From the NCBI RefSeq assembly GCF_056712565.1, contig NZ_CM160072.1: a DNA stretch of 64,000 bases. One strand, given 5' to 3'. A program made the translations under genes and the position numbers. Below are positions 24,409 to 26,061 of this stretch, one piece after another. Each line of letters starts with the position of its first letter. Positions within the stretch are counted from its first letter, which is position 1. The notes beneath the pieces were generated by a model that searched no databases, was not told where the DNA came from, and was given only the letters and a program-made list of their open reading frames with translations.

Positions 24409-26061
24409 GTGAGGAACACGCTGAAACAGGCCATCGTGCTGTGGGGAATGGTGTTACTGCTGGTGCTGTGGTCAGTGTTTATCAGTCCGTCTGGCGTGCT
24501 GAGATGGGCCGGTGCGGCGGCTATCGTTCTGGCGGTTGCTGCGTTGTTGATTTATCGGCGCAGGCAGGCGTGGACGGAGATGACCGGCGATGCCGGGTTG
24601 TCATCGCTGCCGCCGGAAACCTACCGACAGCCGGTAGTGCTGGTCTGTGGCGGTCTGTCGGCGCACCTGTTCACTGACAGCCCGGTCCGCCAGGTTTCAG
24701 AAGGGCTGTATCTGCATGTTCCTGATGAAGAACAGCTTGTGGCGCAGGTGGAGCGATTGCTGACCCTTCGCCCGGCGTGGGCATCGCAGCTTGCCGTGGC
24801 GTATACCATCATGCCCGGCATACACCGGGATGTGGCGGTTCTGGCCGGACGGCTGCGACGGTTCGCCCACAGTATGGCGACGGTGCGTCGTCGGGCAGGC
24901 GTAAACGTCCCCTGGCTTCTCTGGAGCGGGCTGTCCGGCTCGCCGTTGCCGGAAAGAGCGAGTTCACCGTGGTTTATCTGTACCGGCGGCGAAGTTCAGG
25001 TAGCAACATCCACAGAGAACGCGATGCCCGCGCAGTGGATTGCACAATCCGGCGTACAGGAACGCAGTCAGCGACTCTCTTATCTGCTGAAAGCCGAAAG
25101 CCTGATGCAGTGGCTGGATCTTAATGTGCTGGCGGAACTGAACGGCCCGGAGGCGAAATGTCCACCACTGGCGATGGCCGTGGGGCTGGTCCCCTCGTTG
25201 CCTGCGGTGGATAACAACCTGTGGCAGTTGTGGATCACCGCCAGAACCGGCCTGACGCCGGATATCGCGGACACCGGCACAGACGATGCGCTGCCATTCC
25301 CGGATGCCCTGTTACGGCGGTTGCCGCGTCAGTCGGGCTTTACCCCGCTGCGACGGGCCTGCGTGACCATGCTGGGCGTCACCACCGTGGCGGGTATCGC
25401 CGCGCTGTGCCTGTCAGCCACGGCAAATCGCCAGTTATTACGGCAGGTCGGTGACGATCTGCACCGGTTTTATGCCGTCCCGGTGGAGGAATTTATCACC
25501 AAAGCCCGTCACCTGTCGGTGCTGAAAGACGATGCGACCATGCTCGATGGGTATTACCGGGAAGGAGAACCACTGCGCCTCGGTCTGGGGTTATACCCCG
25601 GCGAACGCATCCGCCAGCCGGTATTACGCGCCATTCGCGACTGGCGTCCGCCTGAACAAAAAATGGAGGTGACGGCTTCGCTTCAGGTTCAGACCGTGCG
25701 TCTTGACAGTATGTCGCTGTTTGACGTCGGACAGGCCCGCCTGAAAGACGGCTCGACAAAAGTGCTGGTGGACGCACTGGTGAACATCCGGGCAAAACCG
25801 GGCTGGCTGATCCTCGTGGCCGGATATACCGATGCCACCGGCGATGAAAAAAGCAATCAGCAGTTATCGCTGCGGCGTGCCGAAGCGGTGCGCAACTGGA
25901 TGCTGCAGACCAGCGACATCCCGGCCACCTGTTTTGCCGTACAGGGACTGGGCGAGAGCCAGCCTGCGGCGACCAACGACACGCCACAGGGCCGGGCAGT
26001 CAACCGGCGTGTCGAAATCAGTCTTGTTCCGCGTTCTGACGCCTGTCAGGACGTGAAATAA
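24409..26061 (+). CDS. TagL-like T6SS accessory protein with C-terminal OmpA/MotB peptidoglycan-binding domain
   Basis: 550 aa; N-terminal TM helices; C-terminal LVAGYTDATGDEKSNQQLSLRRAEAVRNWM...NRRVEI OmpA-like motif; GTG start. Confidence 0.7.
   Translation: MRNTLKQAIVLWGMVLLLVLWSVFISPSGVLRWAGAAAIVLAVAALLIYRRRQAWTEMTGDAGLSSLPPETYRQPVVLVCGGLSAHLFTDSPVRQVSEGLYLHVPDEEQLVAQVERLLTLRPAWASQLAVAYTIMPGIHRDVAVLAGRLRRFAHSMATVRRRAGVNVPWLLWSGLSGSPLPERASSPWFICTGGEVQVATSTENAMPAQWIAQSGVQERSQRLSYLLKAESLMQWLDLNVLAELNGPEAKCPPLAMAVGLVPSLPAVDNNLWQLWITARTGLTPDIADTGTDDALPFPDALLRRLPRQSGFTPLRRACVTMLGVTTVAGIAALCLSATANRQLLRQVGDDLHRFYAVPVEEFITKARHLSVLKDDATMLDGYYREGEPLRLGLGLYPGERIRQPVLRAIRDWRPPEQKMEVTASLQVQTVRLDSMSLFDVGQARLKDGSTKVLVDALVNIRAKPGWLILVAGYTDATGDEKSNQQLSLRRAEAVRNWMLQTSDIPATCFAVQGLGESQPAATNDTPQGRAVNRRVEISLVPRSDACQDVK

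Follow-up and report, generated by a model that had tools for sequence, protein, structure and literature searches.

A stretch of 64,000 nucleotides from contig NZ_CM160072.1 (NCBI RefSeq assembly GCF_056712565.1), hereafter called the window, carries a type VI secretion system (T6SS) gene cluster next to mltA and tRNA-Met genes. The open reading frame (ORF) at 24409-26061 of this cluster, T6SS1, very probably encodes TagL (SciZ), the accessory subunit which would anchor the T6SS membrane complex to the cell wall in trans. The product is homologous over its full length to TagL of enteroaggregative Escherichia coli (EAEC), ends with a peptidoglycan-binding domain in which the residues that serve wall binding in EAEC TagL are conserved, and is encoded next to a short TssL devoid of such a domain. 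The same pairing of tssL and tagL is conserved in distant relatives.

The tagL gene and its short tssL neighbour

The ORF lies on the plus strand, starts with GTG and encodes 550 amino acids (aa); its stop codon ends at 26061. The coordinates equal those of the RefSeq coding sequence WP_001246521.1, annotated as 'OmpA family protein' in E. coli NU14, and the two products are identical. The GTG begins 12 nucleotides past the stop codon of tssL (TAA, 24394-24396). The features of the gene pair are as follows.

23731-24396, plus strand: tssL, short form, 221 aa (DotU and NF038239 matches; annotated tssL in RefSeq)
24398-24402, plus strand: Shine-Dalgarno-like GGGAG, 6 nucleotides 5' of the tagL GTG, read from the sequence
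24409-26061, plus strand: tagL orthologue, 550 aa (ORF, RefSeq coding sequence, alignment to EAEC TagL)
24430-24552, plus strand: predicted N-terminal hairpin made by the first (TM1, residues ~8-26) and second (TM2, residues ~30-48) membrane segments (hydropathy, AlphaFold2 helices)
24592-25320, plus strand: predicted cytoplasmic domain, residues 62-304, alpha/beta fold resembling GTPase G domains
25357-25425, plus strand: predicted third membrane segment (TM3, residues ~317-339), with the arginine-rich LLRRLPRQSGFTPLRRA in front (hydropathy, charge count, AlphaFold2 helix 313-356)
25429-25692, plus strand: predicted periplasmic helical region and flexible linker, residues 341-428 (AlphaFold2 helices 362-385 and 398-411)
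25693-26031, plus strand: OmpA/Pal/MotB-type peptidoglycan-binding domain, residues 429-541 (PF00691, PDB matches)
25831-25881, plus strand: predicted peptidoglycan (diaminopimelate) binding residues D475 and N483-x2-L486-S487-x2-R490-A491 (aligned to EAEC TagL)

The EAEC-type protein used for comparison measures 576 aa, and was taken from the genome of E. coli AF58, which was reached through a weak DNA match and hosts a Sci-1-type cluster with the genes for Tle1-EAEC and Tli1-EAEC. BLASTP aligned residues 14-547 of the window protein to EAEC TagL/SciZ at 36% identity (E 4e-90). Identity is highest in the C-terminal domain, which is 68% identical to that of EAEC TagL, and shows a median identity of 63% to those of 50 homologues. 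The domain is the sole Pfam domain of the protein: PF00691 matches residues 437-533 along the full profile (1-98), at E 1.3e-17 and 64.4 bits, the cut-off being 27.2. In a sequence search of the PDB the top matches were TagL-type domains (7RJJ, 5M38 at E 7e-47, 7BBA at E 3e-44), which ranged from E 1e-44 to 1e-50, followed by YiaD, OmpA, MotB, Pal and other OmpA-like structures at E 1e-15 or weaker. The sequence of 5M38 is that of the matching residues of TagL from the EAEC-Sci-1-type cluster of E. coli AF58. The second-best NCBIfam match was the OmpA domain of TIGR03350, 'TssL long form' (residues 416-538, E 2.9e-22, 79 bits, cut-off 139.8); the domain is therefore of the kind found fused to evolved TssL.

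In EAEC TagL, residues N494, L497, S498, R501 and A502 are required for wall binding, and D486 contacts diaminopimelate (PMC8253398). D486 and these five residues align, in the same order, to D475, N483, L486, S487, R490 and A491 of the window protein, and all six are conserved. Each of them is kept in 50 or 51 of 51 family members. Two cysteines, C508 (nucleotides 25930-25932) within the binding domain and C546 (26044-26046) just past it, are kept in 47/51 and 48/51 sequences, respectively, and a conserved C508-C546 disulfide is plausible. The construct in 7BBA (residues 440-552) stops before the position aligning with C546.

The TssL encoded upstream is matched by Pfam DotU (PF09850) over residues 9-207 (E 2.1e-41), and by the NCBIfam model NF038239, 'TssL, short form', at 285 bits (cut-off 180). 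It is 39% identical to EAEC Sci-1 TssL. As a C-tail-anchored subunit of the membrane complex, the protein stops about 14 residues past its membrane helix, and no OmpA or other peptidoglycan-binding domain was matched in it by Pfam and NCBIfam searches. Further peptidoglycan-binding domains were not found among the scanned proteins of the window T6SS cluster. An earlier reading, made from the sequence alone, had described the 221-aa TssL as short and lacking a peptidoglycan-binding domain, had assigned an OmpA/MotB-type C-terminal domain to the product of the next gene, and had taken the latter for a TagL-like protein, rather than for a TssL with its own extension. Profile search bears out the OmpA motif, on which that reading could have failed, and DotU and OmpA domains reside in separate genes, the second of which is homologous to EAEC TagL along its whole length.

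Hydrophobic segments, defined by Kyte-Doolittle means of at least 1.6 over 19 residues, were found at residues ~8-26, 30-48 and 317-339. AlphaFold2, run for the full protein on the family alignment (mean predicted local distance difference test score, pLDDT, 87.8), places helices at 3-24, 29-59 and 313-356. The loop between TM1 and TM2 is very short (SPSG). Flanks rich in K and R residues, including RRR behind TM2, follow the second segment and precede the third, on the predicted cytoplasmic side, and the positive-inside rule is obeyed. A conserved charged residue was not found in the core of any membrane helix among 51 sequences, and the window protein has no lipobox. In the predicted periplasmic region the motif G-x-P-L-x-L-G-L-G-L-Y-x-G is nearly invariant (G386, P388, G394, L395, Y396, G398). 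Low pLDDT values mark the linker at 419-425, and the OmpA fold was modelled at 429-541. [quoted passage not shown]

The family was analyzed also without the help of the OmpA domain. The N-terminal 344 residues alone retrieve 144 representatives (clustered at 50% identity) among 1.84 billion proteins. Complete members of the family measure 540-620 aa, and reach E 1e-10 with this query in 98 representatives. All but one of 51 full-length members have the OmpA domain. When one genome per species was scanned with a nine-sequence TagL alignment, 395 stretches with relatives were obtained, the best 80 of which were used for locus counts. These reside in Enterobacterales (Phytobacter, Serratia, Hafnia, Photorhabdus, Klebsiella, Pantoea, Erwinia, Rahnella, Yersinia pestis, and others), as in many Pseudomonas. 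In 80/80 loci the gene that directly precedes the TagL homologue, on the same strand, is a DotU/TssL ORF of 202-248 aa; TssK was found in 80/80, Hcp in 73/80. Two remote members, from metagenomic or genomic loci, which show 24% and 38% identity over the N-terminal part, sit in arrays in which tssL encodes 218-222 aa, and the gene order tssB-tssC-tssK-tssL-tagL-hcp-tssH is common to these two loci, the window and the EAEC-type Sci-1 cluster. Among 5426 complete E. coli genomes, 1288, about a quarter, carry a full-length tagL at 90% or higher nucleotide identity.

Peptidoglycan binding, interaction with TssL, topology and the requirement for T6SS function have been the subject of experiments on EAEC TagL (PMC8253398, PMC3426401, PMC10433429). 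By homology, the window protein should share the topology, contact TssL, bind peptidoglycan and be needed for secretion. TagL would span the inner membrane by three helices; the N-terminus would lie inside, a domain of about 245 aa would be cytoplasmic, and the C-terminal third periplasmic. It would join the TssJ-TssL-TssM complex via the C-tail-anchored TssL encoded just 5' of it. With D475, N483, L486 and R490, the OmpA/Pal/MotB-type domain would bind diaminopimelate in the stem peptide of peptidoglycan, and the membrane complex would thereby be fixed to the cell wall. The domain would thus be supplied in trans here; in other T6SS clusters it is fused to the C-terminus of 'evolved' TssL. The sequence-only reading had viewed the protein as polytopic, which holds as a prediction, since the three hydrophobic segments are modelled as helices. 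It had also proposed that cell-wall anchoring is outsourced to an accessory protein. This is supported and agrees with the literature, in which TagL is described as the accessory protein that takes over this task (PMC8253398, PMC10433429, PMC3426401); for the window orthologue the function would follow from homology.

The cytoplasmic domain and TssM

The domain located between TM2 and TM3 has no Pfam family (best E to any family 0.016 across 48 members). It is conserved family-wide, and marked by the motifs PVVLVCG, RPxW and NLWQ. Modelled alone on a 48-sequence alignment (pLDDT 91, predicted template modelling score 0.89), it is confidently predicted to adopt an alpha/beta fold like that of GTPases but with no P-loop, which is a mildly new point. 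A Walker A motif is absent from the domain, in which beta-strand 1 has the consensus PVVLVCG(D/G)xxxxLF. In a Foldseek search with the model, SR-beta was the sole match below E 0.001, at TM-scores of 0.26-0.35. The best guess for a GTPase-like fold which lacks the nucleotide-binding loop is that it docks proteins on the side of the cytoplasm.

TagL may be more than an anchor. Its N-terminal part could be a TssM-derived module, similar to that of TagP, in which a degenerate GTPase-like domain docks onto or regulates the complex. This explanation, compatible with anchoring, is rather unlikely. It finds favour in the G-domain-like model and in the family-wide conservation of the domain, as in some features of TssM. 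Window TssM has the same layout as TagL, with two membrane segments, a domain in the cytoplasm and then a third segment (hydropathy peaks at 6-38, 38-66 and 345-374). The Walker A motif GxxxxGK[ST] is not found in window TssM, in which beta-strand 1 reads KVRLLLVTGEPEEAEA, and the protein barely reaches the Pfam IcmF-related_N model (E 0.11). The motif is likewise missing from each of the 17 TssM N-termini that were aligned from clusters of the TagL type, and from TssM of EAEC Sci-1. The 17 sequences were collected as plasmid tblastn matches in Pantoea, Rahnella, Enterobacter, Cronobacter, Klebsiella and Burkholderia; the 80 TagL genome loci end short of tssM, with the exception of one near-identical relative. 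A precedent has been published in TagP, a TssM derivative with a peptidoglycan-binding domain (PMC10433429).

Because of the shared layout, the loss of Walker A and the TagP precedent, homology between the cytoplasmic domains of TagL and TssM was tested, and gave no significant signal. Comparison of the 48-sequence TagL alignment to 1, 2 and 17 TssM sequences by hhalign gave probabilities of 0.6%, 1.9% and 1.1%, respectively. With 17 sequences the score was 19.7, barely more than the 10.1-18.0 reached by 30 controls with shuffled columns and the 17.7 of the reversed alignment, and is not significant. A search of PDB chain sequences by hmmsearch with the TagL cytoplasmic profile returned six chance-level matches (best E 0.65), and no TssM among them. 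One member of a TagL alignment matched Pfam IcmF-related_N, and turned out to be a TagL::TssM chimera; the match was gone after its removal, and none was found among the 48 TagL members. It is doubtful that the domain is a pseudo-GTPase, with a G-domain-like fold that has lost its P-loop, descended from or mimicking the NTPase-like domain of TssM, and that TagL is thereby a hidden paralogue of the N-terminus of TssM, akin to TagP; the TagL-TssM link is speculation. If the proposal is true, TagL would provide the membrane complex of this T6SS subtype with a second surface for docking on the cytoplasmic side.

Points against anchoring, variant alleles and possible decay

Several observations weigh against the role proposed for window TagL. 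According to PMC10433429, accessory proteins that bind peptidoglycan 'do not seem to be necessary to assemble the MC' (the membrane complex), though the EAEC system needs one for function; what is called anchoring may therefore really be stabilisation, or a later step. Outside the binding domain, the window and EAEC proteins are just 21-30% identical, and the surface contacting TssL may for this reason differ. As regards the activity of the cluster, the gene for its lipase effector is frameshifted. Finally, a tagL allele frameshifted ahead of the binding motif has been found on 34 contigs, which suggests that the binding domain can be lost in nature.

The last two observations also favour the view that TagL is dispensable or decaying in this lineage, in a cluster which is partly eroded and in which wall anchoring is no longer selected. 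The lipase effector gene (window 31911-33718; WP_000204766.1, 589 aa, PGAP1-like in NU14) lacks 10 bp (AAATTGGTGG) present in NU14. The deletion point is at 33100, and the gene is split into two ORFs, 31911-33125 and 33104-33718; the effector is probably a pseudogene in the window strain. The variant tagL allele encodes 548 aa and is frameshifted after residue 482, just ahead of the N-x2-LS-x2-RA motif; the longest of the contigs carrying it measures 5.2 Mb. It may be a natural variant whose wall-binding domain does not function, though a sequencing error that recurs is possible too. Signs of erosion were also noticed in single E. coli strains. A frameshifted vgrG is found in S65EC. In TB06052, residues 1-187 of TssL, which exclude its membrane helix, continue after an in-frame deletion into the C-terminal ~53 residues of TagL's binding domain. 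This tssL::tagL remnant is annotated 'tssL', and is followed by genes of the type found in integrated mobile elements (toxin-antitoxin, antirestriction, RadC); the sequence reads as a decayed Sci-1-type cluster. Against decay, the window tagL frame is intact and encodes all binding residues, the core tss ORFs of the window cluster are intact too, with full-length Pfam matches, and the full-length gene is widespread in E. coli at the frequency given above. Decay or dispensability of this tagL is accordingly improbable.

Little credence can be given to the view that the ORF encodes a generic envelope protein of the OmpA family (a lipoprotein like YiaD, Pal or YfiB, or a stator like MotB), located in the island by chance and with no T6SS role. 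In favour of it, RefSeq names the product merely 'OmpA family protein', and among NCBIfam models the YiaD family has the lowest E-value (1.3e-27), with MotB, Pal and YfiB families listed too. Against it, these matches cover residues ~416-546 only and are far under curated cut-offs (YiaD 96.9 vs 175 bits), the protein has three predicted membrane helices, no lipobox, and, unlike the single-helix stators of the MotB/TolR/ExbD type, no conserved acidic residue in its helices (n=51), the N-terminal 340 residues define the small dedicated family described above, and full-length members lie between tssL and hcp in 80/80 loci.

Other variants were noticed in the course of the analysis. Many E. coli genomes, S65EC among them, carry a tagL which is 97% identical to the window gene from nucleotide 192 on, and strongly diverged from window 24409-24600 in the first ~64 codons, which encode both N-terminal membrane helices. 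A diverged 5' end joined to a near-identical remainder suggests a mosaic formed by recombination. Single-representative ORFs from metagenomes and assemblies join the N-termini of TssC, TssK or TssL to the TagL cytoplasmic domain, or TagL to TssM or ClpV, or contain a duplicated TagL. All of these ORFs have the look of products of deletion, duplication or assembly in the tssC-tssH interval. The TssC-, TssK- and TssL-TagL ORFs were not retained as natural fusions, as they are single metagenomic representatives which resemble deletion products.

Related systems and the host island

Features by which TagL can be recognised from sequence are all found in the window: the OmpA-type domain, the binding residues, the predicted topology, homology over the whole length, and the location in a T6SS cluster beside a short tssL. 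The protein and EAEC Sci-1 TagL/SciZ (EC042_4528; PDB 7BBA) share the position in the order tssK-tssL-tagL-hcp-tssH, the short TssL partner, the predicted three-helix topology, the cytoplasmic loop domain, the OmpA-type C-terminal domain and the six key residues. They differ in length (550 aa in the window, 576 in EAEC) and, with the overall identity reported above, in much of the sequence. The clusters differ also in cargo and location: the EAEC cluster has Tle1/Tli1, whereas that of the window resides in a different island, and features a PGAP1-like lipase and a Tli4-like immunity protein.

Long-form TssL proteins, as P. aeruginosa TssL1 (PDB 4B62, matched at E 2.3e-7), A. tumefaciens ImpK and members of TIGR03350, provide an OmpA-type domain to the same membrane complex. 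There, DotU and OmpA domains are on one polypeptide; in the window, the OmpA domain belongs to a protein apart, which has three helices and a cytoplasmic domain of its own, and neither tssL nor tagL encodes both. TagP of the P. putida K1-T6SS, described in silico, is similarly an inner-membrane accessory protein with a TssM-like layout and a C-terminal peptidoglycan-binding domain (PMC10433429; compared by description). In contrast to TagL, the sequence similarity of which to TssM is not significant, TagP is defined by recognisable TssM homology.

The TagL domain belongs to the fold family of the C-terminal domains of MotB/PomB, Pal and OmpA, and has their diaminopimelate-binding residues. A single membrane helix with a conserved aspartate characterises MotB, which forms a proton channel with MotA; Pal is a lipoprotein, and OmpA has a beta-barrel. 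None of these features, single helix, lipid anchor or barrel, occurs in TagL.

The region 23731-26061, spanning tssL and tagL, is 100% identical to chromosomes of phylogroup-B2 E. coli, including NU14, UM146, ATCC 11775, APEC O18 and IMT5155. In the NU14 RefSeq annotation, the fuc operon, rlmM, gcvA, csdAE, tcdA, mltA and three tRNA-Met genes precede the island. The island begins with tssB, tssC, tssK, tssL, 'OmpA family protein', hcp, tssH and vgrG; next, the lipase effector and Tli4-like immunity genes are followed by PAAR, tssM, tssA, a second PAAR protein, tssF, tssG, tssJ, tssE and a VasL-domain gene. Core genes resume with amiC, argA, recD and recB. An island located between mltA and serA, beside tRNA-Met, is known as T6SS1 (GI-7) in the literature on avian pathogenic and extraintestinal pathogenic E. 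coli (APEC and ExPEC; PMC4232414, PMC8686734). The main T6SS genes of the window, in addition to tssL and tagL, are listed below.

22397-23734, plus strand: tssK, baseplate (Pfam T6SS_VasE, E 3.7e-125)
26119-26610, plus strand: hcp, directly 3' of tagL (Pfam T6SS_HCP, E 6.3e-36)
36660-40013, plus strand: tssM, membrane complex, 1117 aa (Pfam IcmF-related, IcmF_helical and IcmF_C)
47682-48218, plus strand: tssJ, outer-membrane lipoprotein of the membrane complex (Pfam T6SS-SciN, E 1.4e-25)

The arrangement is ordinary, and the TagL family, its role and the T6SS1 cluster are already known. In Klebsiella T6SS loci, annotation of TagL is routine (PMC12469244); in the literature that could be searched, the name was not found for the T6SS1 gene of ExPEC or APEC. 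The RefSeq label of WP_001246521.1, 'OmpA family protein', can be replaced by tagL, a change of little significance beyond correct annotation, and window TssL can be flagged as dependent on TagL for any contact with the cell wall. In the dissection of T6SS1 of ExPEC and APEC, tagL should be counted among the membrane-complex genes. The confident GTPase-like model without P-loop, the universal lack of Walker A among TssM proteins of this subtype, and the tagL alleles lacking the wall-binding motif are of possible interest to structural biologists working on T6SSs; these by-products leave the picture of how the system works unchanged.

Some minor features of the island and its surroundings were recorded. 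Three tandem tRNA-Met genes, spaced with a periodicity of ~110 bp, lie at 19348-19648, and mark the insertion point of the T6SS island by mltA. The GC content is 38-40% at 32001-36000 and 42001-44000, and 55-62% in T6SS core genes. The low-GC stretches match the effector/immunity and PAAR-associated cargo regions, as expected of exchangeable cargo modules. Outside the island, a 1-bp deletion relative to NU14, at 7488, truncates fucP (6361-7527), the gene for the L-fucose:H+ symporter, to an ORF of 388 aa instead of 438.

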